Both the position numbers and the translations under genes were made by a program. From assembly GCA_008632985.1 (NCBI GenBank), contig QPGO01000174.1, positions 124,001 to 150,667 on the forward strand: a DNA stretch of 26,667 nt. The letters are read 5' to 3'. The notes beneath the pieces were generated by a model. The model was not told where the DNA came from, did not search any database, and saw nothing but the letters and a program-made list of their open reading frames with translations. Shown here in pieces: positions 1-26,667 of the stretch (position 1 is the stretch's first letter; each line of letters opens with the position of its first letter). Source of the stretch: Psammoneis japonica (Eukaryota).

Positions 1-1097
1 CACACAAGGGCATCCAGTTGCGTCGGAGTAAAAGCAAAAAGGTCCTGATGCAAATCGGTTCCATCAATGTTGAGAGTGGAGCGCAATGGACTGTTCGCGG
101 CTTGGTTCAGAACAGTGCCTAGAATGTGCTCGAGGCCATCAATTTGTTGTTGCCTGGTGAGAACCTTGTTGCAACCAGGTGGATGTCGGAACTGGCTGGA
201 GTCGGAGGGTGAGCTTGAAACAACTTGAAACTTGACTTGAATCTTGACTTGATGTCTTGAGCTGTCTTGAGAGTCAGAAGCCGCCGGGCTGTGATGCCCC
301 ATTTGCAGTTGAGTGCCAAGCTTCCCATCTGGTCCGCAGAGTTGTGCCAGCACGTCTGAACCCACAGCTGGCGACACTTTGGGTTGCCTGAGAGCGGAGC
401 AATGGGTTAAAAACCCCTGCTGACAAGCCAGCCAGAGGTGGACAAGACCTCCAAACCGTTCTTGTTTTATGTCGGTTGGACAACCCGATCAGGCCGGCCA
501 AATTTGGCGCTGTGGAGGGATGAACAAACGTGGGAAATGCACCCTCACCCCAACACAGGCTGCGGTCATGAACTGCTTCCTCTCACAGTTGTCCTGGCAG
601 ACCTTGTGGGACTGCAGAAGACCAGCAATCCAGTGCAGACACAAGGCGGCAGACTTGGCATGTGCAGAGCAGGGCCAGAGTCAAGGGTTTGCATCGTGTG
701 CACGTGGACGCGAGCGGATGGACTGGCAGGATCCGCCACAAGGAATCCGGAATCTCAGACGTCTGAGAATTTGGGAATTCCTGGCCAAACAAATGTCCGT
801 TGAACAAACATGTCCAACGATGGGAGGTGTTGGACAAATCCAAACGTGTGGATTTGACCCAGCACCCAGCAGCGAAGAAGGTGGGCACGTGTGCTCCCAC
901 CACCAACGGCGCACATCGTCAAAAATTTCTTGATGATGACAATGAACGCTCAATGGACAACAAAGAGCAAGACTGTCAATCTGACAGAAAATGAAGATGA
1001 CTGGGTGGAAAAAAACAATGGCTCCTTGCTGCTGTCCAAATGGCAGATGAGTCTCCGTGCAGAGACCGCGGCAGGAACCGAAAGACTGGCGCCGTGA
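1..1097 (+). pseudogene. Degenerate coding remnant, unidentified, in a TpA-depleted block
   Basis: Protein-like stretches switch between + frames (438-803, 800-994, 891-1097) with scattered stops. HPHPNTGCGHELL loosely resembles the SGNH-hydrolase HP...GH block, which is not sufficient for a call. No TpA was found between 470 and 1519. Confidence 0.3.
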
Positions 1098-1314
1098 TGC
1101 CTGCACTGCTGTTGTCATTTTTGTGAGCCGAGTGGCTCAAAAGCAAACTGCATCACGTGACGCGCGCGGAACTGAGAGCACGCACAACCGTGTGTGACAA
1201 ACCAAAATCTTGCTCAAATCCTGCCAAGGCTTGGCACTTGATGCCTCGCCCTTGCGCTTGACCACGCTCATGCTCCCGGCGCCTGAGCGAGCGTGCGACC
1301 ACTGTCGCTGCTTT

Positions 1315-1640
1315 TGCACATTCTTCCATTCAACCCAACCGAAAAACAACAGCTGCAGCTCTTTGTGCACCCATGTCTTGATGGTCACAACACGCGAGCA
1401 AAATCTGCTGGCGCTTGTGGGTGTCCGGCCCGCGTGTGAAATTTTCAAAAAAATTCAGTCATCGGTCATCTTGGTTGTCCCTGCTTGCACCCAACCGAAA
1501 AATGACAGCTGCAGCTCTTTAACATGCATGTGTCTTCATGATCATAACACATGTGATTAAAACTTGCTGGCATGTGGATGTTGGCATGAAATTTTCAAAA
1601 AAATCCAGTCATCCTTTCGGTCATCTTGGTTGTCCCAGCT
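1315..1640 (+). repeat. Two diverged tandem copies (about 150-156 bp) of a dispersed repeat, with a third copy at 13936-14080
   Basis: CAACCGAAAAA..ACAGCTGCAGCTCTTT at 1336 and 1492. TGAAATTTTCAAAAAAAT(T/C)CAGTCATC...GGTCATCTTGGTTGTCC at about 1437 and 1587. Confidence 0.9.
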
Positions 1641-3787: not shown

Positions 3788-3888
3788 TTGCTGCAGAAAT
3801 TAACTCCTAAATGTAATACAGATGTCATCAGTCCTCCAATTCAACACATTCAAAATTTCTACTGCGTCGCCCATTTTCCTGCGCTCTG

Positions 3889-4043: not shown

Positions 4044-4094
4044 GTACTGTCAACAGAGGAAGACACATCCACACACAAAGCCATGCTACAGTCC

Positions 4095-5897: not shown

Positions 5898-6353
5898 GAA
5901 GTTGAAAAGCACATAACAGTTAGATTATAGTTTTCATTGAATACAAAAAATACACACGTTCGGGAGGAAACGGTTAAGTCATTCTGCGTGCCAACACAAC
6001 ACGCATTTGTTTGACAGCATGAAGTGATTCATTCCACGCGTCAAACAGATTGCTACACTCCGCACACCATATGGATTGGTTTTATCCTTGTGCCCAGCCG
6101 TGTCCCAGAGCCGGTAAAAAAAAATTTCAAAAGAGATATCTTTGAAAAAGATAGCGATTTCGTTGTGAAACATAACAAACGCCAGAAAAAGCCTGAGATG
6201 GACAACCAAGCAAAATAAAAAAACACGTTTTTAACAGCATTCAGTCATGACCAAGCAAGCATGAAGTCCTGTTGACAGAAGCACTGTTTCACTGTTTACC
6301 TTTTTTCCGTACCCACGCAGTTGCCACATTAACGCAAAAATTTAATTGAGTAA

Positions 6354-7124
6354 GAGCATCTTCGCCAGTGAGTCGTAAACATAAACATAAACATAGGAAC
6401 ATAACCTAAAAGGACAAGCGAACAGACTGCCCGTATAAGTTACGATCTGCACGCGACCATCATTTTCAGTCGATCACAATCGTATCCATACACGTATATC
6501 AATAACTAACTGATGGTAGGACGACTTGTTGAATTTTACATGACGCCATGCGGCTTTGAACGCAATATACGACACAAATCACCGTCTATTCAAAGATATG
6601 TCGACGTCTATCAATAGAGAATAATTCATATTATATGTCTATGTGTTACTATGTTGTGAAAGTCATTCTACATCGCGAAAACAAGCGAAATGTTATCACA
6701 CGATTTATGCCTTATTCTCTTCTGACCCCATAAACCCCCCATATGTCGGTTCTCCTCCCATATCTCGATGCGGCCGTATGTAAGTTCATAAGATACGACA
6801 AAGTCTTAATTGTTGGGCCTCTGTAAGGTCCTCTCATCAAGAAAGCGTCGATTGTCGTTTCGTCATGGTGACACGCACTTTCTACAGGATTTCTACACCC
6901 TTTTTGTACCAGAAATTTACGATTTTCGTTTACGATTTTGGAGGTGGATCGTATCCAAGGCCTGATTTGCGATTCACTTTCATGAATCGTAAATTCGAAA
7001 AGGGTTATTAGCGCAAAAAATATGTTTACGATCCACCGAAAATGATGATTTTTTGTGAATCTCATTCGTATCGGAAGACGTACGGACATAGGTTTATGTT
7101 TACGACTCACTGGCGAAGATGCTC
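6354..7124. mobile_element. PIF/Harbinger (Tourist-like) non-autonomous element (MITE), 771 bp
   Basis: Perfect 33-bp terminal inverted repeats GAGCATCTTCGCCAGTGAGTCGTAAACATAAAC (6354-6386 and 7092-7124), flanked by TAA target-site duplication (6351-6353, 7125-7127). Interior is AT-rich with no credible transposase. Confidence 0.9.
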
Positions 7125-9539: not shown

Positions 9540-10730
9540 ACTCGGCGTTTTCGGAAACGAGTTTCTCAGAGGTGGAGCTTGCGAAAAATGTGCTGTTGCG
9601 CTAGGCTATGTCGTTCGGTGCCATGTATCAGAGGCGGAGCTTGCGGAAAATGTGCTGTTGCGCCTTATGTCGTTCGGTGCCATGTAAAAGTGGGTTCTGG
9701 CGCGTTTCATTGCACGATCGGGTGTGAATATGATCAAATGCCACAGACCTTCTTTAATTGATTGAAACCGATGTTCTGATGTGACCAAAATAATGAAAAA
9801 TGCTATGAGCTAAAAAACATGCACGATGTCCTGATATTAGCAAAATAATGAAAAAATGCCAAGAGCTAAAAAACATGTAAGACCTGCTGAATGTTTGGGA
9901 GCATCATAAATCGACAGTCGGACACATTACTCGGTATTTTCGAAATCAAGTTTCTCAGAGGTGGAGATTGCGGCAAAAGTGCTGTTGCACGCATGTCGTT
10001 CGGTGCCATGTAAAAATGGGTTCTAGAGTTCGTTTTTTGTGCGCGATCGGGTGTGAATATGAACAATTTTTGCATTCAAAAATACTCCTTGATCAAATAA
10101 TGCCCTTCGTTGTGTCATGCGATAGACTGTTCGGCAAGGAAGCTAAGGCAATGCTCCGCAAGATAGCGTCGAAACTATCAGATAAGTGGCAAAAGCCATA
10201 TTCTGAAGTATGCGGCTATGTCAATGCGAGGATGAGTATATACCATAGTTCGGGCAACCCACCGTTGCCTCAGGGGATCCCGTATTCCCGCTTCTCAGAT
10301 CAGCTCCAGGCGACCCCAGTGGGGAGATGGCGCAGCTCTGTCCCTTTACAAACACTAAAAGGACCCCGATTCAATCGACCTCCACCCACCCGGACAGTAT
10401 ACCAACCGACTATCCACAGAGACTTTGATAATACGCCTAGAGAAGACAACAAAAACCTGCCATCATACTGAACACGGCGCCAGAATCAATTCGAATTTCG
10501 CGCGCACAGCCTACGAAATTGCGAAGGACCTACCCCTTATTCGTACGACTGCATTAACTATAATATCCACTTTCTTTTCTAATAATGCCACGGGACCCCC
10601 TTTAATTGAAACCGATGTCCTGAGATGAGCAAAATAATGACAAAAATGCCGACAAAAATGCCAAGAGCTAAAAAACATGCAAGCAAGACCTGCTGAATGT
10701 TTGGGAGCGTCATGATTCGACAGTAGTCGG
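9540..10730 (+). repeat. Two diverged copies of a roughly 390-bp unit with internal sub-duplications; copy 2 is interrupted by a retrotransposon
   Basis: ACTCGG..TTTTCG...GTTTCTCAGAGGTGGAG starts at 9540 and 9929. ATGTCGTTCGGTGCCATGTA occurs three times. GAGCTAAAAAACATG...AAGACCTGCTGAATGTTTGGGAGC at about 9863-9902 and 10665-10708. Confidence 0.88.
10105..10580 (+). mobile_element. 5'-truncated non-LTR retrotransposon (restriction-like endonuclease type, CRE-like C-terminus plus 3' UTR)
   Basis: Reads PFVVSCDRLFGKEAKAMLRKIASKLSDKWQKPYSEVCGYVNARMSI, then a 1-nt frameshift, then IVRATHRCLRGSRIP...WGDGAALSLYKH* (stop 10356-10358). This matches the typical RLE-element C-terminus. Flanked by direct repeat AATAATGCC at 10096-10104 and 10581-10589. 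Confidence 0.85.
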
Positions 10731-10967
10731 TCGAGGGCAAAGCCTCGGTTGGAAGGAGATGCACAGCTTCTGTGACCACGGTCCGAGCAGTGTCACGGGG
10801 TCAGGATCTGCCCAATGTGTAACTTTAATTAATTCTCCGTTTTGGTCCCCACGCACAAAGTTGGGTGCAAAAAGCAACCAGTGCTTGAGGCCTTGTTTGT
10901 TGACAGGATAGGGAGGTGGTGAAGTGACAGCTGGGTAAAAAATGCAGTTGTCAGTCCTATTATGGTT

Positions 10968-11057
10968 ACCTAGAGTGACCCCAAAAGGAGCTCATAGACC
11001 CGAGTGACCTCAGAGCCAGGGCGGATCGGTGTTGCGGCTAGCCCAAAGTAGCTTCAT
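10968..11057 (-). repeat. Duplicate of the last roughly 115 nt of the adjacent CDS, with a 29-nt internal deletion
   Basis: Matches 11068-11183 (GTGACCCCAAAGGAGCTCATAGACCCGAGTGACCTCAGAGCCAGGGC...GGATCGGTGTT.CGGCTAGCCCAAAGTAGCTTCAT). Confidence 0.92.
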
Positions 11058-11069
11058 GGTTAAGAGAAC

Positions 11070-13767
11070 CTAGTGACCCCAAAGGAGCTCATAGACCCGA
11101 GTGACCTCAGAGCCAGGGCTAAGCTGCTTGCGTGTCTCCTTGTTGACGGGATCGGTGTTTCGGCTAGCCCAAAGTAGCTTCATAGGAATACCACTAAGGA
11201 AGTGGTAAAAGTACTCATGAAAGCCATGCTTCTGCCACATGTGCACCTCAGCCGAAAAATATTTGACCTTGTCAAAAACACTGGAAGAGATCAAAGAACC
11301 CAAGAGCTCCCATTCTGCGCCCTCAACATCAAGTCGAAGCACATCAATTTTCTCATCCCCGTGTTCCTTCATCAGACTTTTCAAAGTCCGGACATTGTAG
11401 TTGGCGGCCTTGTTGTAAAGTGTCGTCTCGCCTTGATGCGCACCATCGTTAGGGCCAATGCCAATGGAGTAGAACCAGTGATTCTTACCTCGCTGGTAGG
11501 TCTTATATCCGTTTGATGGGTCAAAGGAGTAAACCGTGCAGCCATACTCATGAAAGAAATCATCAAAATCCCATTGATCGGCAATGCCAAAGGAGTACAC
11601 TGTGCAGTTGCCGGGAATGATGTCATCGAGACAGTACCATCTGGTGACAATCTTCTCGACGAATTCCTTTGTGTTCTGGCATGTTGGTTTTTTGGCTGTC
11701 TCCAAAAATGCTTTCATGTAATTGGTCGTGTTGACAGCAACGGTGGCAGACTTGGTTGCTAGGTTCTTGTCTAGTCGAAGAGAGAACCCGGCACGAAAAT
11801 TTTCAAACACAACCATGTCACCAGCCTTTGATCCTGGGGGGACGGTACAGTCAACAGCCAGACTCTTTTTCAAGCGGTTTTGGTGGACTTGATCAGTGAG
11901 CTCCACAGAATTTGAGTAGTTTCTGAATACAAAACTGTGGTAAAGATTGTATTCTGAGAATGCGTATTCGTGACCGTTGCGTGTGTACGGTGAGGGTTGA
12001 TCATGCGGAATGTTTGAGATTATGGTCTTGCTGCATTGAACCACATCGTTACGGTCTGTCAAAGAGTTGCCGGGACAAAGCACACCCAGTAGTCCATCGA
12101 GTTTGGCTGTTGTCATGCCAGCAAAGTGTGACACAGTGTCTTTACGGGGACTGGAATACCCTAAAAGTCCCGCAGTGGTGATGTGGTAGATGTTCTTGCT
12201 GGCGTGCGGCGCCGAAGTCGCAATCACCACCTTGCCCTCTTGCGTGATCAGATCAAATGGCGCCGTTAGTACCAAGTCAGCATCCCACAGGGCAAACGTG
12301 GAGGAGAGGGAAGGGCCAAGTAGTTTGTAAGCAAAAAGCTTGACAAATTGCTGGAGGTACCACCCAGCCCGGTCACCGAGCTTGGTCCAAGGATCACCCT
12401 TGGCTGCAAAAAGCGTTTGGAAATCCAAGTTGGTTAAAGGAACAACGTCTTGCTCGGAGTGACAGGCCGTCAACCCTGCCAAAACGTCGTCTGCGAAAAC
12501 ATTACGACACGTTGGGACAAGATGACGGGGTAGGATAAGATGGATGTTGCGGGGAGGAGGGTTGAGGTATTTCCGGAGATTCGTCGCAGTCCTTTCGGTT
12601 GCACAGTTGATTGCTCCGGCAACGATAACTACATCCATTTCAGCTGGTGGGTCCCTTTTCTTTTCTTCCTTGGCAACCATACACGCCTTTTGCTTCTCCA
12701 GTTTCAGAAACTGTTCGGCCTCGTTGCTTGTGTCTTTGTCATACATGTGACTGCCGAGGCGCCCACCCTGCGTTCGCATAAAATAGTTTCCAAAGATTTT
12801 ACCTTCAAGAGGAAGAGGCGTCAAACCAAAACGGTAGAGCGTATAGCACCACAGTGGCTGGTCTCGCCACGAATCCTGTTCTTGTTTGTATCGATCCCAA
12901 AAAAAATCCGATGCCTTTTGAAAATTAGGATTTGTGGGGTTGTAACCTACACAACGAAGCGAAAACAAAACTTCGAAAGTTAGCACTGTGGGAGAACGGC
13001 ACCACATTGCTGTCGCAGTTTCTCATATTGTACACACCAAAGAATGTATTCTGATAGAGCTGGCACCCCCAATCGAAGTCGGGCTGTTTCTCCAACCAGT
13101 TCTTGGTGGCGTCAATGTTTGACTGAATGTCCTTTTTGTATTCAACAATTTTGCGAAGCTCCTGTGCTAAAGGCCAGATGTGCTTTCTCTGAGCTAGTCC
13201 AGCATCACTTTGAAGGATTTTGTGACTTTGCTCCTGGAAATCTTGAACTGATCCTTTTGGCCCAATCACACCATCTATGTAAAAGACAACCGGGCAGTGC
13301 TTCTGTATCTCATAATCCTTCCACGCCTGAAACTTTGCGTATCGCGACTCGGTAATCATGCGCCTAAATCCAGTGTCGAAATACAGCACCTTGCTCCATC
13401 CGGGTGTTTTCAAATCGACCAAATTTGTATACAAGAAAAAGGCGTAATTCGGGTATCTGACTTTCCAGCTCGACGCATTGAGTGGCTTGTCGGACTGCTC
13501 CGAAGACAAACCAAAGATGCTGGAGATAAAGCACCCATCATAGGGTTTTTCAGGAGCTGGGTCCGTGAAAATTACTGTAGCATGCGGTTCCTCATGACAG
13601 AACAGACGCTCTTCGTTGGATTTGGGGGGATCTTTAGGCTGCACAAACGCCAGTTCCAGCTGCGACGAGGTAAGCCAGGCATCCCAGAACGCAGTCTTTA
13701 AAAGCGCGATGAGATGCATGACGACGAGCAAAGGCAAAATCGCCTTTCGAACTCCTCTGCCTGCCAT
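11070..13767 (-). CDS. Two-exon type-II membrane protein, about 868 aa: DUF616/TOD1-MUCI70-like glycosyltransferase domain, a second GT-A-like (DUF6492-like) domain, and a Methyltransf_22/METTL24-like methyltransferase. Exons 13767-13038 and 12946-11070
   Basis: ATG at 13767 gives signal anchor RKAILPLLVVMHLIALL. Splicing joins QNTFF-G-YNPTNP in frame. Domain 1 motifs: SRYAKF, FYIDG, SWRDQPLW. Domain 2 motifs: GWYLQQFVKL, LWDADL, FSEYNLY. Methyltransferase motifs: CTVYSFGIADQWDFD, YSFDPS, IDVLRLDVEGAEW, AEVH. Confidence 0.85.
12947..13037 (-). other. 91-nt spliceosomal intron, phase 1
   Basis: Donor GTGTGT at 13037, branch TGCTAAC at 12985-12979, pyrimidine-rich tract, acceptor TAG ending at 12947. 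Removal fuses the two ORFs in frame. Confidence 0.9.
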
Positions 13768-13935: not shown

Positions 13936-14080
13936 AGTACACTTTTCCGTTTAAACACAACGGAAAAATAACATCTTCGTCTCTTTGAAATCATTTTTTA
14001 ATGAAAAATCTACTGACTTGTTGATGTCTATGATGCGTGAAACTTCCAAAAAATTCAGTCATTTTTTCGGTCATCCTTGG
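13936..14080 (+). repeat. Third, TpA-retaining copy of the 1315-1640 repeat, between two divergently oriented genes
   Basis: CAACGGAAAAATAACATC..CTCTTTG, AAAATCTACTG and TGAAACTTCCAAAAAATTCAGTCATTTTTTCGGTCATCCTTGG align colinearly with the copies at 1336-1480 and 1492-1640. Confidence 0.8.
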
Positions 14081-14201
14081 GTCATCAGTCATCAGCAGTT
14101 CCCCCAGTGTGTCGCAGCTCGAGCACGGTCACTTCCAACTCCAAACTTCTCCAACCAGCGTTGAGCAGCTCCTCATTCGACTCTCGCTGTTTGATGTCAT
14201 C

Positions 14202-15194
14202 ATGGCATGGAAAGAAAGTTCTCTTGGGAAGAGCAACAAGTTCAAGTTGTCGTTGCTCGTGGCTGCAATCTTTCTGCTTGCCAGCACAACTCTCTCGTTC
14301 GTGGCTCCAACGGTTTGCGCCGCTGGGGCAGAGAAGACTGACAACACCACACCGCCGCCAAGCATTCAGGGATTCCCTAAAATGGCAATCATCAAACCAG
14401 AGTCTTGTGACAAGGCAGGATGAAAAGGCGTTCTTGGATTGGCGCATGACAGAGGCACATGGGTGCGCGGCCCTGGAGGAAAAATCTTGGGCAGCGCCGA
14501 GACCCATTGCTCACAGGCTCGCCAGCTGCCCAGAGAGTGAAAGTCACCTTCTGGGTGTGGCAGTGATCTTGGATGTGCCACAGAGGCGCTCATCTTTGCA
14601 GCTTCCAAAAGAAAGCACTCTGAAACATCGAGTCTCCGCTGCAGTGGTCGACACGCCGAGCGGCAGTGTCAACTGGATCTTTGAACCATGCGCGACTGGC
14701 TCTCTGAAATTTGGCAATTTCACTGTGCAACCATAGATTTTGACACCATTCCAACAAACTTTTTGCACTGTGGGATGGAGGAGCCACTTGTCCCATTGTC
14801 CCTTGTGGCAGCATGTGCTTGCAGATGGCAGCAATGCAAAGAGCCTGCAGCCACAGCCCTTTGACCTTGTTCGCACCCACGATGTCATTCAGCACATGCC
14901 CCTTGAAACTGGAGTGCAGTTTGTCTGCAATGCAGTCATGCTGGGGGCAAAGTGCCAGGTGGCCACCACACACAAAACAAAAGCTCCAAACAAAAACATT
15001 GCTCTTGGAGATTGGTGTGCAAAAACGACCTGCTGAAGCCACCCTTCAATCTCCCCAATGCAACAAATTGCATCCCGACTCATCCAGATGTGGAAAAGGA
15101 CTGGACTTGTCTCTGCCATTTGCAGCCAGCAACAGCCATCAACGAGTGGCTTTCAAAAAACCCTTGGTGTCACTCACCATTTGAGGAACAATGA
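14202..15194 (+). pseudogene. Pseudogene of a type-II membrane class I SAM-dependent methyltransferase
   Basis: ATG at 14202 and a TM segment (LSLLVAAIFLLA). Across stops and frameshifts it reads KSPSGCGSDLGCAT, VVDTPSGSVNWI, HHSNKLFALWDG, FDLVRTHDVIQHMPL, NAVMLGAKCQVATTH, NKNIALGDWC, NDLLKPPFNLP. This is the motif order of a methyltransferase family I recall as SGxGS...DxPCGDxNW...RDxxQH...PFNxP. Confidence 0.75.
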
Positions 15195-15369
15195 ACAGAT
15201 CCAGCCAGGGGTGCGGTGGGTTAAAGTTGCACATTGGGCGCTTGCCCTCACCCCACTTTTTTCCTGGATTTGCCAATTGCTCTCTGTGCAAAACACGCCA
15301 TTGTGCAAAACGACTGCCAGTCTGCTGGCTGTCACCCGCTGCAGCACAGCTGTTTTGGCATCAGTCTTT

Positions 15370-16040
15370 GCACCTTTCCTGGGCAACTGCCACTTCGAGC
15401 TGCTTTCGCTTTCTTTGCTTCTTCTGTGACTTCTTCTGAAGCTCATTGCCGGGCCCCCGGAGGTGGGCATTTTCACATGTGGGTTCAAACGAGCCCTGCG
15501 GACCAAAAGTGGATCCTTGCCTTTGACGTCTTGGCTCTTCTTTGTTTCCTCTGATGACACAATCTCTTGTGTTGCAGCAAATGGAGCACAAACTGGTTGT
15601 CATGACTCTGCCCCTCCCCTTGGTCCACAAGCTTTGGCTGGGTGCAGCAGGTCGATTCGACAAAGTCGAGCTTCCTCTTAGCGACAAAGCCAGCAACTGA
15701 CACCTTGTTGCCGCAGACACATCCGCTCTCCACCCAGCTCTCAAGAAGTTCCTTGAAATGCTCTTGATTTGGCATGCTCCCTTGCCAACACCATGCTTAG
15801 AATGGGTGCACCTGGGGGGCCGCAAGAATCACATGTGACAGTGGCTCGAACCTCAGATGCCATGAACAATTGTCGGTGTGCCCTGTTGGTCTCCGTTGCT
15901 TTCACATAGATTGCTTCTCTTTGGTGTCGTTTTTCGCATTTGGGAGAGATCTCTTTAGCAGCTCGTCCAGAGACAAGTCAGACTTGTTGATGTACGCTCT
16001 CATCTTTTCCGGCAACAGGAAGTGATCCTTGTTGGTAAGA
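15370..16040 (-). pseudogene. Frameshifted Cys-rich remnant resembling the C-terminal region of a DNA-transposon protein
   Basis: Stitched frames read KDHFLLPEKMRAYI...VRATVTCDSCG/PRCTHSK...ESGCVCG...VESTCC...LCSICC...GKDPLLV...PTSGG...KRKQLE. The CxxC-xPRCxY...YxCG...ExxYY...CxxC layout is one I associate with transposase C-termini. Superfamily not determined. Confidence 0.45.
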
Positions 16041-16515: not shown

Positions 16516-17601
16516 CTACACCAGGAGGCGCATTGCCTCGTCCGGACAGGTGAGCAGGGCCTTCCCCAATTCCCTCGTTCGGCCCTGGCAAGACGCCTTC
16601 TTCCTCGTGTTCAACGTCCACTCCAGCACATGCTGCTTCGCCTCCAGCCATTCATCGAGTGTCACCATGGTAGCGTTGCTGTTCATTGCCTCTGCCAGCC
16701 GCACCCACGTTGTCATCCTGGCCTTCTTCTTATTCAAGTGCTTCGCGTCCAGGTCCGGGCAGTGGTGCCTGGAGAGCAGCCCCTGGAGCCGGTCCACTTG
16801 TGTGTAATGTAGGAAGACGAGGTTTGGGAGGTTGTCCTTGACGGCCTTGTAGAGGTCGCACGTCAGTACCTCATGGTTTCCCCAACCGAGTTCTGACCTG
16901 CGGGGCACAATCACCCGCTTGACGAGGTTCGCCTCATCGACGACGCACTCCTGCGGCGAGCCATCCTCCGACGACTTCGTCGTAGGGGCGGACACGACGA
17001 CCAGGGGGTCGCGGCCATTCTCAAAGTTCTTGCAGTGCCGCGTTTCGACGACAAACCGGATCGCCGAGATGAGACGGTCCGTTTCGTGGCGGTACACGAA
17101 AACAACCAGTGAGCCGTCGGCGATTTTCGACATTGAGGAGGGCATGTGCTGCATCAGGTGGATCATAGGCTCGTCCAGCTTCACGTGCGATGCGACGACC
17201 CTCTGCGGTATGAGCGAATTCGTCAAGAACGCCATCCTGTCCCGGTCCTCTGCGACGACGTTTTTCACCTGCAGTTGCTGCGGAGGGTGACCCATGCACG
17301 ACTGCACGAAGTGCTTCAGCGTCGTCCCTGCCGCCTTGGACGGCATCGTAATGAACAGCTGCCCCCTCCTCGAGATGATCTCGTCCAACTCATCGTCGAT
17401 CGACAAGCACTGGTACAGTTGTTCGCTGCCCCGTCCTGCTCCCTGCTTTGCAACCCTCCTGCCACCAAAGCCGTCGTCCGTCGTCGACGAGAAATCCGAA
17501 TCTTAAAGAGCACCGCCGGGAGTGCTCCAGAGCCTCGCCGCGGACAAGACAACTATGACCAACATGGCGATGCGCACTCGCTTGTGTAGTCCCACCGCCA
17601 T
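16516..17601 (-). pseudogene. Sulfotransferase-like type-II membrane protein gene with one in-frame premature TAA (17505-17503)
   Basis: ATG at 17601 and a TM segment (IAMLVIVVLSAA) are in frame with ORF 17406-16516 across a single stop. FITMPSKAAGTTLKHF resembles the 5'-PSB loop, and VFVYRHETDRLISA resembles the 3'-PB motif of PAPS-dependent sulfotransferases. Confidence 0.7.
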
Positions 17602-18018
17602 TGTTCGTTGGTGGCGCTTGTCAATCTCCTTTCGGGTGGTTCCTTCGCTGCAAGCAACGTGTTTGTGTCGACATTTGACATTTGCCATGCACTGCTCTAG
17701 CTAGCAGCAGAGCACCAGCCACACGCCTTGCCTGCACGTACAGAATGTAAGTTTAATGCGGTCATTCAGCAGGTCACAAAAATGACTGGCCTCGTGTAAA
17801 GACCGACAAGGGAGATGACCTCATCACCAGTTGATGACGCAACTGAAAATCATTCCCCGCATCACCATCATTGGACGCGTTCAGTTGGCTTTTGGAAGCG
17901 AGCTGCTTTGCTCATTCTTCCAAAGAGTTTTAACAGCAAGCCAAATGGACAGTCTAAAGTGCCATCTTGTTCGGCGGAGGATGCCATCTGCCGCTGTGTG
18001 GGTGAACCTCGCAGGGCC

Positions 18019-18540
18019 ATGAGCCAGAGCGGAGCCACTGGAAGAGCCCCACAACAAGGAGCAGCACAAGCAGCACAATGACTGGGAGCCATTGGGAATC
18101 AACCCCTGGCACAAGCTGCCAATGATGCGCCAAACACTGGAGGTGCACAGCCCATGCCGCCGGCGCCAGCACACCCAGCTGCAGGCGCCGTGCCAGGAGT
18201 GGCGGCACAGCAGGGTGCGCCGCAATGAGCGCAGCCGCCCAGTGCACCACAACAGCTGGTGCCACCAGTTCATGCAATGGCCGCTGAGGACCCGTGCCAT
18301 GGGAGCCACACAGACATCATGCAAGATTTTGTGGTCCCGACACAGGGACAGTCGCGGCACAACCCAGGTGTGCTGAGAGACCACGTTGGAGCAGCGTTTG
18401 GGCATGACCTGCCTGTGGCACTCGTGTGGAAATGTGGGGCACAAGGTGGGAACAATGCTGGGGTCCTCGAAGTGTTTCACTGCACTGCACAATGCCCGCA
18501 TCAGAGGCCACAACACAGTGTTGTTCACTTTCCTTTGGAA
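18019..18540 (+). pseudogene. Degenerate Pro/Ala/Gln-rich ORF fragment, probably transposon-derived
   Basis: A single frame reads MSQSGATGRAPQQ...*...*...EDPCHGSHTDIMQDF...LPVALVW...LEVFH with two TGA stops, inside a TpA-depleted block. Family not identified. Confidence 0.35.
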
Positions 18541-18953
18541 AATTTGGACATTTGTTTTGACAATTGTGCACAAAAATTGGTGACAGCTCACTTGTTTTTT
18601 GACAGTCAATTTACATTTGTCATTGCCGTTTTATGTTGGCAATTGTTGCCATTTTATTTTGCTTTTAAGTTGCCAAAGAATTTCAATGAGCCCTTTGTTG
18701 TTGAATGGTGCTTTTTGTTTTGATCAATTTTTCACATGTTTGTGGAATCGTCAACTTTGACAGTGCTTTTCAATGGCTTCACCGCAGCCTTGCGTCACCA
18801 CAGACAATGGCATTTCTCCCTCGCCCCAGTCAGCCACGCAATTGCCCAGAGGAACACCATCTCATTGTTTCCACCTGCACGCTCCAGTTGTCCAGTCAAT
18901 GGGCCCCTGCCTGCATTTTGGTGCCTTTTCTACATGCGCAGTTCTCCACCCAT

Positions 18954-19012
18954 TTCACAACAGTGCACCCTCTCCCCAAAATGCTTTTGACGAGAGGGTG
19001 CACTGTTGTGAA
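18954..19012. other. Perfect 21-bp inverted repeat (hairpin)
   Basis: TTCACAACAGTGCACCCTCTC (18954-18974) is the exact reverse complement of 18992-19012. The spacer can pair further (CAAAA/TTTTG). Confidence 0.92.
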
Positions 19013-19052
19013 TCCTGTGCATTCTACGTGAATCGGCAACTGACTGTTGGCC

Positions 19053-22000
19053 ATGGCATCTGACGACTTTGCCCCGTCTGACGACGAGGTCGACCCTGAC
19101 CCTTCTTTCCAAATTACCGAGGACTTAAATTTTGATGAAATGGAGTGTTTCACCAACGGTTTTGGATTCGAATTGTTCCAACCCAAGCTCAAAAGCACAC
19201 TGCAACGCGTGCCTCGAAAAAGAAGTTTTTGGAGTCGACGAATTGGACCCCCTCTCCAGAATTCCTCGCTCTTCCCTTCCTTTGTCACAAGCCGAAGTTG
19301 CGCCGTGTTCCTCATGTTGCCGAAGTTATCCACACCAACAATGTTGCAAGGAAAACCCTTGGCTATCCCGACATTTGGCCCCACATCATGACTCGTGGTT
19401 GGTCCATTGAGAAATCCCGCCGTGCGAAAGGCGAACATGTCCTGCGACACAAAAATCTCGAGGAGGCTCTGCATTTCTCCAAAACATCCGGAGAGACAGA
19501 AAAAGAACAGCATGACCGCATGCTTCTTCACCGTAACATCCAGGTGATGGTGGAATTTGTTTGTGCGATCATCACCGGAGATGACCCAAATGATCCTTTA
19601 TCCGGCAAGCCTTGTTTCCGATTTTTGCGGTGCAAAAGTCTCCAAAGTTTGATCAACGATCAAGCCCAAGACCTCCACAGTGCCCATTTTGTCACTGACA
19701 TCGTCATGCGTTACGTTCAGTGCAAGCCCAAGGACATGGACTGTTGGTTTTTGAAGATTTTCCATCACGTCAAAACCCAAAAGGAATGGCGCCTCTTTGT
19801 TGATGGCTTTCTGGTTGTGTGTGACACTGACGATCCTGGTGCCCAGGCGGATGAGATCAAGGGGTTCCTTGACGACTCAACCGGCAACATGAAGAACACG
19901 GTGACAATGCAAGGCGATTCCCTTGCATGCCGTGAGGCTCATGAAGAAAAAATCAATTCCATGTTGAATCACGAATTTGGGAAGCGTTGTCCCAAGGAGC
20001 AAATTGGCATCCGACCTGGGCACAGCAAGCAGCTCACAATGCTCCATTGCAGAATGCGTGATCAGAGGGCCGGCTGCTTGGAAGATGACAATGAACAAAT
20101 CTACAACTCCAAAACCAAACGCAAAATTAGGAGGACCCGCAAGGATGGCACCTGTTTGTACGATGGCAAGAACCCCCCCCCACCTCCCGCCTTCTGCCTT
20201 TCCGCCTGCATCTGTCGTCTCAATGTCTCTTCTCACACCCCATGATTGTTCACGACCCACCAGAGCCTTCCTTGACCATTCCCAACAAGAAGGCCAAGCC
20301 TGCATCTCGCAATGAACAAGCCCCTCCATCGCTTTCTGGCAATGTTCCGTCGTCTGGGGAGGCGCGCCGGACTCTCACCACCGACCTTCCGTCACTCTCA
20401 GAAATTGTGGAAAACCCAAAACCTGCTTCTACCTCCAAAGGTCCTTCATCCAAACCTCATTCCTCTCCTCCTTCTGTTTCAGCCAATCCTCCTGCAGTTA
20501 CGTCTCCTCCTGGTGACCCTGACGACATGTCGTGGCTGGACCTGTCCACACTCCGCGATCGCTTTGACCCGTCTGAGTGTCGACCCGTCACCACCGAGGA
20601 AGTTTCTTCTCATTTGTCACACCTGCACATCATTGACAAAGCCACCGACACTGATCGGGTGCTTCATCATTCTGCCGCCGACTTTTGCCTGGCGGGTGAC
20701 TTGCGGGAAAACTGGCACACATTCTCAAACAATGCGCCATTGTGTGATTCCGCCACCGCATCTCGTGTTCGAACCGAGCACCCTCCTGACCTTGATCACT
20801 TCTCCAAGGAACTCTCCGTCGCCCATCAGGCTAACTCTCTGTACAAGGGGCACTTCGGGTGCCTTCGTGCATGCATTTCTGCCCTTCTTCTGTTTGTTTT
20901 GTTGAAGGGAGAGTCCGATTTGACACGTGACGGACCGGTTGCAGTTCAAAACGGCGAAGCACGCAGGATAAAGTTCGGTTGTGCTGGGAGAGCACATCAC
21001 CCCAAGACGCCTGGTTCTGCCAAACTGGCTAAACCAAAGGCCACTTACGGACTTGATGTCTTTGAGTCCAATGACAACTTTGACGCCAACAAGACCTCCA
21101 AAATCAAGGCGATGGCAGCCGACATCCTTGACTCGATTCAGCTTTGCGAAAATGAGGTAGAGCTGAAAAAACTGAGCAATCCACCACCATTTGACTGGTC
21201 ACTTCGGCACGAGGAATGCTCGCAAAAGTTGGGCAACGAAATGGGCTGTCTCTTCTTCAAACGTGAGGACGCCACTGTGCAGGGATTGTGCATTTCCGGG
21301 GTCAAGTCTGTGATGGTCACCATGACAATAAAAACTGCACCTGGCGTCGACATGGGAAGACAGCTGCCGGTTGCTTCTTCATTGTGGATGCCTTTGGCGA
21401 CATCTGGTCCTTCAAGGTTGTTGCCAACAGCAGAAGGACCATTGGTGAATGCCACGATGACCAGTGCGACATGAAGCCTGTGCTTGCTCGCATGCACCAC
21501 AATCGAGCTCAGCTTGATTTTGCACTTAAAGACTTGGACTTGCAGCATGATGGTCCCACCCACCCCGATGTGTCGCTTTCCAGCATTACATTCAAGCATC
21601 TTTCCCTTGACAACAACAGGCCGTGGGACAATGTTCTCATTGGTGGAGGTGGCGACTCTTCACATGTCGAGGTGTGCATGGATCGACTCAAGTTCCCGAC
21701 TTTCCCAGTCAGGGACTTCCACTTGTCTGCCCCAGTCACAGTGATCTGCCGTTTCAAGAACATTGTGTGCCGATCGGGTCCCGACCCAAAACGAGTCATT
21801 CGTTTGGCAATCCATGCTGGTTGTCCCACCGGATGTCACCGATTTTACTGCATGGGGGACAAGTGTCTTCCCAACCTTTGTTGCAAAGGTGCTGACCCGT
21901 TTGTCAACTTTGCCGATTGCTTGCAGAACACATTTGGGGTGCCATGCGGTGACCCACAGGTGGGTGGGATCAGCCCCACCAATTTGACGTACGAGAAATT

Positions 22001-23069
22001 TTGCGATGCATTTCTAGACCCTTGTTGCGTCGGAACCGCGAATGACCTAATTGACGCAATGGTGGAAGAAATCTGTGCTGCACTTCTCTGGATAAACAAC
22101 AACGTCAACACCAACGAGTTCTGTCCCAACTTAATGGAACAACGGTGCAAGGCAGCGTGTGATGCTTGGGCAGACCGGGGAGCAGATTTCAGTGAGATTC
22201 ATCTCATGTTGGTGCTGCAATGTCTGGTGCTGGCAGGTGTCGCAGTGAAAGACCATCCAAGACTCAATGACATCATCTGTCCTGTCTTCAATTCGGGAGC
22301 TGCCGCACAACTGGGGCATGTTCAACCGGAAGAAAGGCCGCTCATGCACCAAAGGATGTCATCTGAAACAGGAACCGAAGAGCACGGTTGGAACGGAACC
22401 GAGCACAAACTTTGTGAGAATTCAGACAATTGCTGCACCTGTGTTTTTGATCATGTTTTCCAAGGACCCTGTTCAGGACAAGACCTGTTTACCTTCTCTC
22501 CCTCTGGGCAGTGTCTCCGCAAGCCATGTGGGTCAACCGAGTGTGAAATTTTGGAGTGTGTTGACGACGACCCCAACCTTTGCCAATCACAAGACAATGC
22601 TGAATCGCACACATTTGTGTGTGAATCAGCCGTGCAATCAGATGGTGCCAGTGTTTTCTCTGCTGTTGATGGACTGCCCGCGTACAATGAACTTAGCTCA
22701 TTGTCATCGGAGGAGTCTAGACTCACCGCAAACAATGAACTTAGCTCATTGTCTTCGGAGGATTGTCAATTTGACGCGGAGAAAGAACTAAGTTCATTGG
22801 ATTCGGAGGAGTCTCGACTCGCCGCAGACAATGAACTCAGCTCATTGTCTTTGGAGGAGTCTGTGTTGTCGGAGGACTGCTCGTGTCCTGATTCTGACTG
22901 CCGCGTTCCAATTGTCATGGTAGATTCTGTTGTCCTTCAGTCGCAGGATCAAGAATCCGATGAAGATGACACAAGCAATGCAACCGCGTGCGATCGACCC
23001 GAGCCACCGGTCCTTTTACAAGCACAAGATTTTGACATGGACAAACATGTGAATGCCATTTTTGAGTGA
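19053..23069 (+). pseudogene. Long frameshifted cargo ORF with unknown N-terminal domain, Pro/Ser linker, HxDxxN-containing domain, helical domain ending ExxLCE, and acidic tail
   Basis: ccATGg at 19053 (MASDDFAPS...). The protein-like reading passes through ORFs 19145-20245, 20242-21474 and 21288-23069, with apparent frameshifts near 19210, 20180-20240 and 21300. Cys/His-rich and Tyr-poor. Confidence 0.6.
22686..22862 (+). repeat. 48-bp coding tandem repeat, about 3.7 units (NELSSLSSEESRLTAN-like)
   Basis: Units start at 22686, 22734, 22782 and 22830. Confidence 0.92.
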
Positions 23070-24016
23070 GTCCATCAACAGCCGAAGAACTCCCACAATT
23101 GTTTGGTGTCATGTTTTTCACAAATCTCAACCCGCAACATGACTCCTCCTGTGCTTTTGTTTCACATTGTCATGTCATCCCCAGACAAGATGGAGGTGCA
23201 AATGTCCTGTGGCTTTGCATGACGAGGCCCGTCATGGCCGGAAACCTGACATTAGATGAGATGTGTTCAGACCGTGGCGTGGAAGCTGTCCGATCCACTC
23301 AGCAAAGAAGAGATGAGGCAAGGTGTCAAGTCGTTCAGGATCTCCACACGAACTCAAATGTTCGTGCATGCACTGTGTCCCTGCAGGATGGCAGCCCCGC
23401 TTGTCACTTGAGTTGCAACATGTCCGCCAAGAATTTTGCCCAAAGGGTCAAGACGCGGTTTGGAACAGTGATTGATTTTAAGAAAAGTGGCTTTGTTCAG
23501 ATCTGCATGGACTGCTGCTGGATGCAAAAAGGGGAGTGGCTGCAGTCGACACTCGGAAATCGCTTCTTTGGCGAAAACCTGAGGGATGTGATGGAAACGT
23601 TGTTTCATCCAAAGCTCCAGAGGTGCCGCATCATAATCCCGTGCACCATTTGGTCACTGACCCAAACCGTGCACAACTTGGATGACATTTTGGAGTGCGC
23701 ACTGGTGCAGGCCATGACACAGGACATGGCACATGAAACAGTGACGCTCCACCAGGCTTCCCAGGAGATCATGGAGGAGCACCGTGTGGATTGGCTGGGA
23801 AAACCATCTGCCCAGGAAGCATTGCATTTGGGAGTCACGGAACAGGAAATTCGGGAAACGCTGCCACATGAAGAAGCTGATTCAGTCCCAGAGTTCCTGC
23901 GAGAGTGTGGAAATTACAACCCGAAGGAACCATTCCCGTTCCTGTCCTTTGACAGGAGAATTCCTGATTTTGGGGATGAGTTAAGGAAATGGCCTGGGAG
24001 TTGTTTGCTGTGCTAG
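23066..24016 (+). pseudogene. Decayed cargo ORF, 316 codons, possibly the frameshifted C-terminus of the upstream ORF; possible Rossmann/methyltransferase-like fold
   Basis: Open frame ending in TAG, with alternating strand/helix pattern VLWLCM...RDEARC...CTVS...HLSCN...FVQICMDCCW...IIIP. Only one Tyr in 316 aa. Confidence 0.5.
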
Positions 24017-24130
24017 TTCCCAGTCGGATTTGTGAGTGGATTGTCAAAGTGGGTGAGTGAACGTTGTCTCTGTTGTCCTTGTCGTCCCAATTGAGTTTTC
24101 TGCTGCTGTTGTCGGATGCTCACATGCTTT

Positions 24131-26667
24131 TCACCTGCTTTTGTGAAACAGCTCTCCCCATGTGTTTCTGCGGTCTTGAACTGCCCAAACATGCTTTGTC
24201 CTGTCGTGTGTCTCAGCAATGCCGGGTTGCTCCTCATGCACCAACAATTTGTCACCAACAGCGTCGATGGGCACCAAGAAAAGCTTGGGTGAGCACACTG
24301 TTTGTTCAGTGGAGGACAAGTTGTTGTTCTTCACTTGGTCCAATTTCCAGCAACTGACCAGGTCGGTGTGTTGCATTCGTTCAACCATGGCACGCTTGTT
24401 GGGCTGGCACGTGCAAGGGTGAACGACCGCGTGCAAGTCACCGTGGCTTTCCCTTTGGAAGAAACAGTGAAGTCTTGATGGGAAGCACAATTCCCCCCCA
24501 GTTGTGCCAAAGTTAACATTCACCCAGTCGTGAACCGGTCCTTCGCTGTTGCAGTCTGGGTGTGCGCGGCAAGTGTCTTTCCCGTTCTTGTGGCGGAATT
24601 CGGTTTTGCAAACAAGGTTGACGGTGAGGTTGCCTCCTGCTCCAACGCATTCCCTCCACTTCTTTTGAAAGAAATGGAGCAGGACCGGGTGAACCTGACA
24701 TTGTTTTTGCTTTCCGTGCCAGAGAAAGCTCACTGCATTGTTTGTCGCACTGCAGGTGATGGCAAAGGTGCTGCCACCCAGTGTGTGACTGTCGTTGCCA
24801 CGTGTGACGTCCTTTCGTCCAACTCTCGATGTGATCCATGGGTTGGCCGACAACGCACGGTGCACCTTCATTTGGTCTTGCATGCGCGACGCAACCTGAC
24901 CCAGGAAGATGTCAAAGCTGCGTTGTTGTGCCGTGGCAGAGGGCAATTTGAAAAAATCCTCAAGCAAAGATTCTCCAAGACCAGCGTCAAAGTTCATGGC
25001 ATGACGGAAATGACATAGAAAGATTGGAAGGTGAAGAAGCTCGTGAAGTTTTTGCAGCTTCCACCCAGCCCCTTCGTGTCTGGGGAGCATGTACGACGAG
25101 ACACCAGCAACCAAATTTTCTTTGTGATTTTGGTCAGGTCAGTTGTGTTGGTCGGTGGGTCGCCGAGTCGACACCAAGCATGGAAGGTGAGCAGGTCTTC
25201 CAGCAACTGGAGCATGTGCCTGACACTGCAACTGAAGGGGCTTTCTCTTTTTTTTCCTTTTCCGTTGATTGTGGCTGTTGCCTTCATCCTCGGACTCGTC
25301 CGGTTGTTGTTCCACATGATCGTCTTCATCCGTTTTGTACGGATCATCTGTTCCATCATTGGAATGATGATTGTTGCCATTGTCGCACTCTTCCGGCATG
25401 TGACAGCGATTGATTCGGAACCCAGGCATCCCACGCCCTGACGGCAATGGAGGATTGTCTTGGTCTTCCTGGAGAAAACAAGATTCGCAGACATCTCTGC
25501 CTTCCTTTGTCAGCAGCAACAAACAAAAAACAAAGGCCACCCCCGCCCAATGATGTGAGTTGAGGTGGGTGAGTGATGTTGCCCCGCCCTTGAAATTGGT
25601 TCGTAAGAAAGAATTGCACGTGGATCGGTGATTGCCAAACATTTTTTCCACTGATCTGTCGACCTCGCTTCTCACTGAGTTTGTCATGCTGTCGACAAAA
25701 ACACCAACCTCCCTTTTTAAAGTTCCATTTTCAAAAAGGTGCTTCATGTCGCTTGCCGTGGAAAGGGTTGCTCCAAATGGCTGTTCTCTGAAATCTGCAC
25801 CTGAGCAAGCTGTTGGTGGGCACATTGTGCTGCTTCATGCAATGAAGCTGCTGTGGCCAGTGGTTCCTTTCTTGCTCGTCAAGACTGAGATCATTTGCGT
25901 GGTTCTGGACTGACAAAATGTCACCAGCCCTGACTGGTTCGCACTCCTTCCAAGGGTCGTCAAGCTCATTGCATCCGGTCATGCAAAACCTGGAACAACG
26001 TTGGTGACAGTTCTTGGCACCACACCTGCCCACAAGGCAGTCACCACTCTTCGCATCTCCGTTGATTAGGATCATTGTTGGAATGACATGAAGGAAACGT
26101 GTCTCATCACCGTGTCGAACGCAGCAGCGAAAGCCACCGTTTTCCATCATGTCCAGCAGAGGCTGGAGCATTGTTGCTAACACCTTGTGACAATCCCGGA
26201 TGCTTTGGCCCCTCTCCGACTTTCGAGCGTTGGATTGCTGTTTGGCGGTGGAGGAGGACATTTTTTCTAGGTCGGGAATGTAGCCAAGGACACGCCACTT
26301 TGCTCTGTCATGCCATTGGTTGCAGGCAATGTGAGCCGACGCAACTGTGATGGGTTCTCCGCAGGAAGACGACATGGAGGCTGTCTTCCCAGTCTTGTCA
26401 ATGTAAATTGTCAAACATTCGAGGAACTCTTTAAGAGGATCCGAGACCCTGGCTGCGTGCACACTTCTGTGCCACTCTCCTGCCAAAACACACTTGTCAT
26501 GCTTTCCCTTTGAGACACACATTCCACATGGATCGGCAGTGTCAGCAAGATCACTGGGGTTGGCCCATGTGCAAGCATCCAGCATGAACGATTCCCACAC
26601 ATCTTTGAAATTCCATCGCGGAACTCTCACTGTTGTCTCGCCGCGTTCCCATTGACGCTTTCTAGGT
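24131..26667 (-). pseudogene. Plavaka-type transposase pseudogene with at least 3 frameshifts; 5' end outside the window
   Basis: Motifs in expected order across ORFs 26630-25731, 25825-25139, 25494-24994 and 25114-24131: IYIDKT, GEP, WRVLGYIPDL, INGDAKSGD, SRFC, DMKHLFENG, RTNFKGG, LLTFHAW, PRHEGAGWKLQKLHELLH, NFDAGLGE, RAHPD...DWV. Confidence 0.8.

Follow-up and report, generated by a model that had tools for sequence, protein, structure and literature searches.

A probable case of TpA-directed hypermutation: the dead transposase of a many-copy, Plavaka-like DNA transposon with nearly all TpA dinucleotides converted to TpG or CpA

The stretch of DNA analyzed here, called the window, comprises 26,667 nucleotides of contig QPGO01000174.1, and its right-hand part is occupied by a DNA element that has lost nearly all of its TpA dinucleotides. 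The minus-strand gene at the end of this element had been interpreted from the sequence alone, without database searches, as a transposase in which conserved tyrosine residues were replaced by cysteine or histidine (the “sequence-only reading”). It is very probably the dead transposase of a three-gene transposon present in many copies, which was hypermutated from TpA to TpG or CpA after insertion. The DNA carries a TpA-specific A:T-to-G:C change on both strands, which is restricted to the element and two other blocks of the window. The loss of tyrosine, the deficit of TA, and the sister copies of the element together support the direction of the change, the hits on both strands, and a process that acted on DNA. 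The features are compiled in Table 1, with positions counted from the first nucleotide of the window.

Table 1. Depleted blocks, former genes, transposase fragments, and copy-readable codons in the window
Feature	Position	Strand	Remarks
TpA-depleted many-copy element	17916..26667	.	Left border at about 17916-17956; right end beyond the window
Transposase pseudogene, Plavaka-like	24131..26666	-	Located by tblastn of P0013, P0003, P0010, and others
Piece A	25821..26666	-	Contains DPCGMC, GEWHRSVH, IRDCHKVL, and GRCGAKN
Piece B	25247..25834	-	Frameshift relative to piece A near 25821-25834
Piece M, third frame	25063..25260	-	Contains LLTFHAWCRLGDPP; residues 1-53 of P0004 match in frame -1
In-frame TGA stop inside the transposase frame	25139..25141	-	
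Piece C, C-terminal third	24134..25138	-	Contains TCRAHPDCNSEGPVHDWV at 24571-24521
ORF2 pseudogene, companion gene	20962..22610	+	One frameshift at about 21297; tail to about 23069; convergent with the transposase
ORF3, third former gene	19139..20245	+	From a codon-usage scan trained on the transposase and ORF2
Second TpA-depleted block	14030..15800	.	4 TA within some 1.77 kb; depth of 59-73 in X1, as for a single copy
Third TpA-depleted block	1..1519	.	4 TA; none in 469-1519
Codon 21208-21210	21208..21210	+	Window CAC (His); other copies TGC (Cys); P0162 Tyr
Codon 21193-21195	21193..21195	+	Window T|GAC (Asp); other copies AAC; P0162 Asn
Codon 26550-26552	26550..26552	-	Window T|GAT (Asp); other copies AAT; 5/5 homologues Asn

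Between positions 24131 and 26630, only 12 TA dinucleotides were found, which corresponds to an observed-to-expected ratio (o/e) of 0.08, with respective values of 1.58 and 1.51 for CA and TG. Counted up to position 26666, 13 TA compared with 86 expected at the rate in the coding DNA of relatives of the transposase (Poisson P = 1e-22) and with 127 expected at the rate in the neighboring positions 4001 to 13000 (Poisson P = 4e-38). The next-lowest dinucleotide was CG with 0.65 to 0.66, and none other came near the level of TA. For the whole element from 17916 to 26667, the TA o/e was 0.12 and that of CA plus TG was 1.52, in contrast to 0.62 and 1.24 in the neighboring DNA. Across the transposase region and the element, CA was at 1.49 to 1.58 and TG at 1.51 to 1.54, and every 1-kb interval of the element was TA-poor. 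The frequencies of AA, AT, and TT were the same as in the neighboring DNA, and the GC content was 0.51 compared to 0.43 to 0.56 in the relatives. Because the TA o/e ranged from 0.42 to 0.68 (median, 0.55; CA plus TG, 1.08 to 1.57) in the matching coding sequences of 25 relatives of environmental origin, the TA deficit is not a trait of the family. Expressed per 100 nucleotides and compared to these relatives, TA decreased from 3.39 to 0.51 and TG plus CA increased from 15.8 to 19.1, that is, by 2.9 down and 3.3 up, while CG stayed level (4.24 versus 4.30). The transposase gene is frameshifted and contains an in-frame TGA, so that its lack of TA is not due to selection on the coding sequence. 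The excess of CA and TG nevertheless has two sources, because ordinary decay of CpG to TpG or CpA, not considered in the sequence-only reading, also acts on this copy, as indicated by a CG o/e of 0.66 in the element compared to 0.86 in the neighboring DNA. For the loss of TA, there is a single source.

Depletion of TpA also removed stop codons. On both strands between 18001 and 26667, 49 TAA and 29 TAG triplets were counted compared to 373 TGA. This near-erasure of TAA and TAG results in long open frames in all six reading frames, most of which are not genes. Stop-to-stop open reading frames (ORFs) of 100 to 600 codons were present in all six frames of this region, so that gene finders would over-call here.

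All five strings that the sequence-only reading had cited for replaced tyrosine residues are present in the minus-strand translation. The homologues of TCRAHPDCNSEGPVHDWV, encoded at 24571-24521, contain TYRAHPDYxSEGPWYDW at this site, and those of IRDCHKVL, with its cysteine codon at 26192, contain RDYHK. The two histidine codons of GEWHRSVH at 26471 and 26459 correspond to tyrosine in 5/5 and 4/5 homologues, respectively, and the cysteine of DPCGMC at 26519 corresponds to tyrosine in 5/5. The string GRCGAKN with its cysteine at 26024 is likewise present, but its origin from tyrosine is ambiguous, with three homologues containing tyrosine and three phenylalanine at this column. Except for this column, the statement that these positions are normally tyrosine agrees with the intact homologues, which contain tyrosine and not cysteine or histidine.

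The same pattern appeared when all tyrosine columns were considered. With ancestral residues assigned by majority rule from eight homologues, tyrosine was retained in 2 of 23 columns, compared to 314 of 538 columns for the other residues; the rest of the tyrosine columns contained cysteine (9), histidine (4), tryptophan (2), or glutamine, serine, phenylalanine, arginine, valine, and lysine (1 each). A stricter demand for conservation among 36 homologues left eight tyrosine columns, which contained tyrosine (2), cysteine (3), histidine (2), and arginine (1). Pairwise comparison of the transposase and ORF2 with their closest homologues yielded 56 tyrosine columns, occupied in the window by cysteine (22), histidine (11), phenylalanine (6), tyrosine (5), or other residues (12). 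The lost tyrosines were mainly replaced by cysteine or histidine, in 33 of 51 columns, and a loss to random residues, which would have spoken against the sequence-only reading, was not found. The reverse situation, tyrosine in the window opposite cysteine or histidine in the homologue, occurred once, giving forward-to-reverse ratios of 22:0 for tyrosine to cysteine and 11:1 for tyrosine to histidine. Before the last 112 columns, those of the N-terminal piece of ORF2, were added, the combined ratio was 30:1 (binomial P = 3e-8), and tyrosine was retained in 4 of 52 columns compared to 640 of 1,195 for other residues (Fisher P = 7e-12). The tyrosine content was 2.7 to 4.1% in the homologous proteins versus 0.0 to 0.7% in the pieces from the window.

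Several other replacements that could be derived from a change of TpA pointed to the same direction. Over all classes that such a change can yield, the pairwise comparison gave 102 forward versus 49 reverse replacements. Among the classes named for counting in the sequence-only reading, isoleucine to methionine (10:2), isoleucine to threonine (3:1), and valine to alanine (9:4) displayed the predicted asymmetry, while leucine to proline (2:1) was too rare to be judged. The same is true for leucine to serine (2:1), and methionine to valine (6:1) was likewise asymmetric in the expected direction. Since both products, cysteine and histidine, occurred in each of the two convergent genes, the transposase and ORF2, both strands of the palindromic TpA had been hit, as proposed earlier for the transposase alone. 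A preference for A-to-G changes on the coding strand, suggested by the higher number of cysteine than histidine replacements (22 versus 11) in both convergent genes, was rejected because it is contradicted by the raw sense-strand totals, which were 223 TG and 262 CA in the transposase and 165 TG and 153 CA in ORF2 (baseline TG/CA ratio in the relatives, 0.97). A spectrum of single-step mutations from the protein columns was also discarded as too noisy at 37 to 56% identity, with 100 of 245 changes being multi-step; TpA-context transitions accounted for 21.8 of the 145 single-step changes in this noisy spectrum.

Copies of the element in sequencing data allowed the direction to be examined at the level of DNA. 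The stretch is contained in a single public sequencing run (X1), which was used at the contig level and may be the sample from which the window derives. An independently built contig set of X1 held 55% of the sequence words of the stretch, with 593 contigs at a likeness of at least 99%. At a likeness of at least 80%, 3,204 contigs matched a stretch of 20 kb, the majority of them short and located on the element. The summed depth was 1,067 to 3,605 between 18674 and 26667 compared to 59 on the unique flank, which is covered by long contigs, and it climbed from about 59 to 640-3,600 at the left border of the element. This sum cannot be read as a copy number and was taken only as a sign of many diverged copies. 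Runs X2 and X3 gave no cover over the element, and no RNA run was among those listed for the stretch; both results are uninformative on expression. The differences among the copies comprised 945 transitions and 276 transversions; 40 of these 1,221 places were listed, 29 of them inside the element. At 7 of the 29 listed places, the window contained TG or CA and other copies TA, with the reverse at 1 of the 29. Three codons connect residues of the homologues with the sister copies (Table 1), and the direction of the change is thereby fixed. At least part of the mutation occurred in individual copies and on either strand. Three doublets with TG on one side and CA on the other (20574-5, 21208-9, and 23732-3) were considered as a proof of a TA ancestor and dismissed in this function, because a CG ancestor fits equally well.

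Two further blocks in the window were depleted of TpA to a similar degree (Table 1). The borders of the depletion were sharp, at 1519/1520, at 14029/14030, and at about 17955. Neither the block from 1 to 1519 nor that from 14030 to 15800 gave a Pfam match or a coding signal in the codon scan, and the 66 ORFs of the depleted blocks together yielded only one chance-level match to Pfam. Because the block from 14030 to 15800 was hit although it is present at single-copy depth, repetition is not a precondition for the process, which is a difference from the fungal process of repeat-induced point mutation (RIP). The plus strand of the block from 1 to 1519 contained more TG (158) than CA (133); this block is outside the stretch covered by the read layout.

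A literature search for hypermutation of TpA to TpG or CpA found only a preprint on Bigelowiella natans (bioRxiv 10.64898/2026.01.13.699255, 2026). In this preprint, 231 of 302 nuclear point mutations in mutation-accumulation lines were located in integrated giant-virus and virophage regions, and 230 of these 231 were A-to-G or T-to-C changes on TpA. It also reports 124 TpA-poor and CpA-plus-TpG-rich clusters genome-wide, 324 TpA-poor coding sequences in which domains of DDE endonucleases and reverse transcriptases are overrepresented, and a proposal by Mettrop et al. that adenine deamination by an ADAT2-like enzyme serves as a defense against foreign DNA (10.64898/2026.01.13.699255). The signature of TpA-directed hypermutation is, therefore, already in print for B. 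natans, and the window provides a further, nearly saturated example.

Both cases have the TpA target, the products TpG and CpA, the A:T-to-G:C direction, and the location in blocks of foreign or mobile DNA in common, which is here a three-gene transposon with many diverged copies. Both are also independent of the copy number, as shown by the single-copy region from nucleocytoplasmic large DNA viruses (NCLDV) in B. natans and the single-copy depth of the block from 14030 to 15800. In both, the targets are degraded and cannot be annotated, and DDE-transposase domains are among those enriched in the targets of B. natans. The differences concern the kind of target and the extent of depletion. The window contains a many-copy, cellular, Plavaka-like DNA transposon with a TA o/e of 0.08 to 0.12, whereas the preprint on B. 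natans gives a Rho of 0.45 for the NCLDV region and describes the virophage region as not yet depleted. The direction was derived from homologues and sister copies here and from mutation-accumulation lines there. Genes of B. natans contain 8 introns on average (Table 1 of PMC13746701), compared to three intron-free, host-like ORFs in the window. These ORFs comprise 634, 650, and 328 codons and could themselves be foreign genes. They are one of three weak hints, none of them decisive, that the window does not derive from B. natans; the others are that the only run listed for the stretch dates from 2019, with no mutation-accumulation run among the entries, and that the protein collection contains no nearly identical protein of the transposase family.

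The process also resembles RIP, which likewise introduces transitions in a dinucleotide context into DNA and leaves missense-riddled transposons with a strong skew and sharp borders. RIP, however, changes C:G to T:A, mostly CpA to TpA, so that TpA increases and stop codons are created, whereas TpA decreased and TAA and TAG vanished here; the skew of RIP was thus absent from the element, with TA at 0.12 and CA/TG at 1.49 to 1.54. Moreover, RIP requires duplication and a cytosine methyltransferase-like enzyme, while a single-copy block was hit in the window. With APOBEC3 and ADAR of animals, the process shares a deaminase-type, context-specific hypermutation of mobile elements, with ADAR favoring an A that is preceded by U. 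These enzymes act on the cDNA or RNA of reverse-transcribed elements, in contrast to the cut-and-paste DNA transposon and the single-copy DNA affected here. Evidence for replication via RNA was not found: the transposase belongs to a DDE-type family, and none of the 66 plus 19 ORFs matched a reverse transcriptase.

These observations very probably reflect the following course of events. After insertion of the element, a dinucleotide-specific hypermutation introduced A:T-to-G:C transitions at the A of TpA on either strand, by which about 90% of all TpA were lost from the element. Tyrosine codons TAY were converted to TGY (cysteine) or CAY (histidine), ATA (isoleucine) to ATG (methionine), and T|AAY (asparagine) to T|GAY (aspartate), and nearly all TAA and TAG stop codons disappeared by the same change. 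A TadA/ADAT2-like deaminase, which would convert adenine to hypoxanthine in DNA, is the candidate for the enzyme. The tRNA target A34 of TadA/ADAT2 follows the invariant U33 and is thus in a UA context. The targeting would follow a signal other than repetition, the role may be genome defense, and the process probably corresponds in kind to the hypermutation, confined to TpA, that integrated foreign DNA undergoes in B. natans.

Evaluation of this interpretation needs to consider several observations that weigh against it. No deaminase gene was present within the window. Among the lost tyrosines, 18 of 51 were replaced by residues other than cysteine and histidine (phenylalanine, 6; arginine, 3; asparagine, 3; others, 6), and the replacements of asparagine by aspartate (7:10) and of lysine by glutamate (3:4) were without asymmetry in the pairwise comparison. 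Arginine to cysteine, histidine, or tryptophan had a combined ratio of 9:0, a sign of CpG decay, and 14 of the 29 listed places in the element had CA or TG in the window and CG in other copies. Only one of the three TG-versus-CA doublets, 21208-9, was resolved, through the tyrosine of the homologue. The ancestral states rest on protein homologues with 37 to 56% identity and on three copy-readable sites, not on an ancestor at the DNA level. Finally, the element displays a bounded deficit of TpA with an excess of CpA and TpG (0.12 and 1.52), but in the one phase tested it did not agree with the strict rule of the preprint, which demands three consecutive intervals per cluster. In non-overlapping 1-kb intervals from 18001 to 26000, the threshold for TpA was reached in 8 of 8 and that for CpA plus TpG in 4 of 8, not more than two of them consecutive.

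Alternative explanations were compared with the interpretation as a deamination of adenine in DNA. A modified or damaged thymine in TpA that mispairs with G, leading to a T-to-C change, would leave the same signature. Since TpA is palindromic, T-to-C and A-to-G changes on opposite strands are indistinguishable, and all counts agree with both chemistries; some protists indeed place a hydroxymethyl-uracil-type base at TpA. Nothing specific argues for thymine chemistry, whereas a UA context is natural for TadA/ADAT2 and preferred by ADAR, and the authors of the preprint favor adenine deamination with an ADAT2-like candidate, so that a thymine-based process is unlikely. The element may, alternatively, have been poor in TA from the start, as a trait of the family, due to a TA-poor donor genome or by selection against TA, such as for escape from a nuclease or from stop codons, without any mutation in place. 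This would agree with the TA-poor state of all 1-kb intervals, and, because few sites were readable among the copies, a large component from before the amplification may exist. The relatives with their TA o/e of 0.42 to 0.68 and the 2.7 to 4.1% tyrosine in the homologues, however, indicate otherwise, as do the destruction of conserved tyrosines in a gene that carries frameshifts as well, the TA or alternative product kept by other copies at the three homologue-tied sites, and the equal depletion of two unrelated blocks, at least one of them single-copy, with sharp borders. An original poverty in TA is, therefore, very improbable.

Even less credence can be given to a scenario in which double-stranded RNA of the element underwent A-to-I editing of the ADAR type and was then reverse-transcribed into DNA. 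Animals do contain hyper-edited retroelements, and both products would result if an enzyme that prefers U before the target A had edited the sense as well as the antisense RNA. The sequence-only reading had objected that a DNA transposon has no RNA intermediate, and this argument holds: the transposase is of the DDE cut-and-paste type in the CACTA/EnSpm-Mirage-Chapaev-Transib (CMCT) clade, a reverse-transcriptase match was missing from the 66 plus 19 ORFs, the depletion extends uniformly over three genes in two orientations and over the spacers between them, and the single-copy block was hit, too. In B. natans, it is integrated DNA present as a single copy that acquires the changes while the lines grow clonally. 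The least probable explanation is that the TA deficit is incidental to methyl-CpG deamination, GC-biased gene conversion between copies, or an artifact of sequencing or assembly. CpG decay is real, as indicated by the 14 of 29 listed differences, the 9:0 ratio of arginine replacements, and the CG o/e of 0.66 versus 0.86. None of these processes, however, removes TpA specifically; AT, AA, and TT were unchanged, the GC content was within the range of the relatives, CG per 100 nucleotides equaled that of the relatives, and the loss of TA corresponded to the gain of TG plus CA. An artifact is also contradicted by the independent X1 contigs that carry the stretch, although X1 may be the sample of the window itself.

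With a length of at least 8.75 kb, the element that was subject to the TpA-directed hypermutation is a cut-and-paste transposon with three genes and many diverged copies. Its left border was deduced from the last dense TA at 17955 and the end of the unique X1 contig at 17915. No further copy was found inside the window. ORF2 was 53% identical to the protein P0162 and shared the replacement of tyrosine by cysteine or histidine; P0162 gave a weak Atlas lead to clusters of XPG_I/FEN-like nucleases (score, 0.85). ORF3 had no match in the protein collection, but a relative was located upstream of the ORF2 relative in an environmental contig (L008; E = 2.5e-18). Since L008 keeps ORF3 and ORF2 (at its positions 1653-5006) and the convergent transposase in the same order and orientation, the element was identified as a transposon with three genes. 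No Pfam family was assigned to ORF2 or ORF3. The tail of ORF2 contains, at 22631-22858, four tandem units of 48 nucleotides that encode an acidic, NELSSLSSEE-like repeat.

The transposase pseudogene has about 860 codons, or the C-terminal three quarters of the protein, which correspond approximately to residues 296-1151 of a homologue with 1,154 amino acids, and its N terminus is located past the end of the window. It is broken by at least three frameshifts and one in-frame TGA; two of the frameshifts border piece M, in which LLTFHAWCRLGDPP corresponds to FHAWYRLGDPP in the homologues. The closest homologue of the C-terminal part was P0003 (E = 2e-175). The best match in the protein collection was 56% identical, so that a nearly identical predicted protein was missing there although the transposase family has many copies. 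Searched against 1.84 billion representatives, the N-terminal piece retrieved 420 proteins at E ≤ 0.001, a large number of them with 1,000 to 1,400 amino acids. The homologues from this search that were considered for the family assignment had E values from 2e-55 to 1e-14. A search of viral contigs with a transposase profile gave no relative, and a search of metagenome contigs with the window's own reading gave no hit.

Assignment to Plavaka, as made in the sequence-only reading, is right by way of the homologues, 16 of 21 of which matched PF18759 at E ≤ 0.01 and 12 of 21 scored above the gathering score of 26.3 bits. The translated pieces of the window themselves gave no Plavaka match at E ≤ 0.01 and no match to any Pfam model at E ≤ 10, which is expected because this copy is hypermutated and frameshifted. 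The transposase thus belongs to Plavaka indirectly, by transitive homology. The alignment of the homologues contains conserved GDxKSGD...GGKNC and SHHW stretches. PMC12730594 describes Plavaka as a DDE cut-and-paste lineage in the CMCT clade. Termini in this clade are terminal inverted repeats of the form 5'-TGT..ACA or 5'-CATCA..TGATG, with target-site duplications of 2 to 3 bp; a search of the window yielded no inverted repeats, but the right end of the element is located past it. Similar to Plavaka elements are the PF18759 matches of the homologues, the length of the protein (about 1,000 to 1,400 amino acids), and the accessory genes. Different are the loss of the match to the model in the window copy and the host range, since Plavaka families have been described from fungi, while the host-like genes of the window look, on weak grounds, algal or protist-like. 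The companion genes ORF2 and ORF3, moreover, belong to no known family. In a group of transposase relatives from another source (P0006-P0012), inspection by eye and without counting indicated conserved arginines replaced by cysteine or histidine with tyrosine kept, such as FLCTNFCGGA versus FLRTNFRGGA, which is a pattern of CpG to TpG or CpA.

The surviving TpA sites in the three depleted blocks were not distributed evenly with respect to their flanks. An A before the T, or a T after the A, was found in 8.5% of 142 flanks compared to 26 to 27% in the baselines, a deficit with a Fisher P of about 1e-7 against both baselines, and the flanks were rich in T (43%). ATA/TAT seems to be attacked most readily and TTA/TAA least readily, with a predicted order of ATA > CTA, GTA > TTA, and this preference agrees with the strong signal for isoleucine to methionine. 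It is absent from the parts of the preprint on B. natans that were examined.

The DNA outside the depleted blocks contains a few features of its own. An intact ORF of 634 codons at 1883-3787 (plus strand), which encodes a Methyltransf_22/FkbM domain, adjoins the depleted block at the left end of the window. It displays an intermediate deficit, with a TA o/e of 0.13 to 0.53 per 250 bp, and a tyrosine content of 1.9% compared to 4.6% in the methyltransferase-like ORF at 11070-13022. The deficit could be a spill-over of the mutator or the composition of this gene itself. For a comparison of codons, the similarity of the two methyltransferase-like ORFs is too low (27% over 121 amino acids). The ORF of 328 codons at 16516-17502 (minus strand) has a GC content of 0.59 and no Pfam family. 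The nearest Atlas clusters of its product (P0163) contain viral and haptophyte hypothetical proteins (score, 0.94), with Sulfotransfer_2 in 13% of one cluster, and this ORF was the deepest part of the stretch in run X2 from the same sample. The regions 4096-4733 and 5668-5897 are AT-rich (GC, 0.38 to 0.40) and contain several families of direct or tandem repeats of 43 to 115 nucleotides, including an exact duplication of 115 nucleotides.

To understand the biological meaning of these data, the process can be seen as a TpA-directed A:T-to-G:C hypermutation that is the mirror image of RIP in fungi. The window provides an independent example in which the process has come close to saturation on another type of target, a Plavaka-like DNA transposon with many copies. 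Its conserved tyrosines act as internal indicators of the direction, and the sister copies reveal copy-specific hits. The end state of the process is a TA o/e of about 0.1, erased TAA and TAG codons, false ORFs, proteins enriched in cysteine and histidine, and a loss of recognition by Pfam, which matters in practice when genes are predicted and repeats annotated in genomes of this kind. The contexts of the surviving TpA sites are a first hint of the extended motif of the mutator. It is possible, if somewhat doubtful, that the source is an organism other than B. natans and that the mutator is a wider eukaryotic defense, which also saturates many-copy cellular cut-and-paste transposons, one copy at a time and on either strand; the flank preference could then help to identify the deaminase. 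If the source is indeed another organism, this would mean that the range of the process widens beyond one species.

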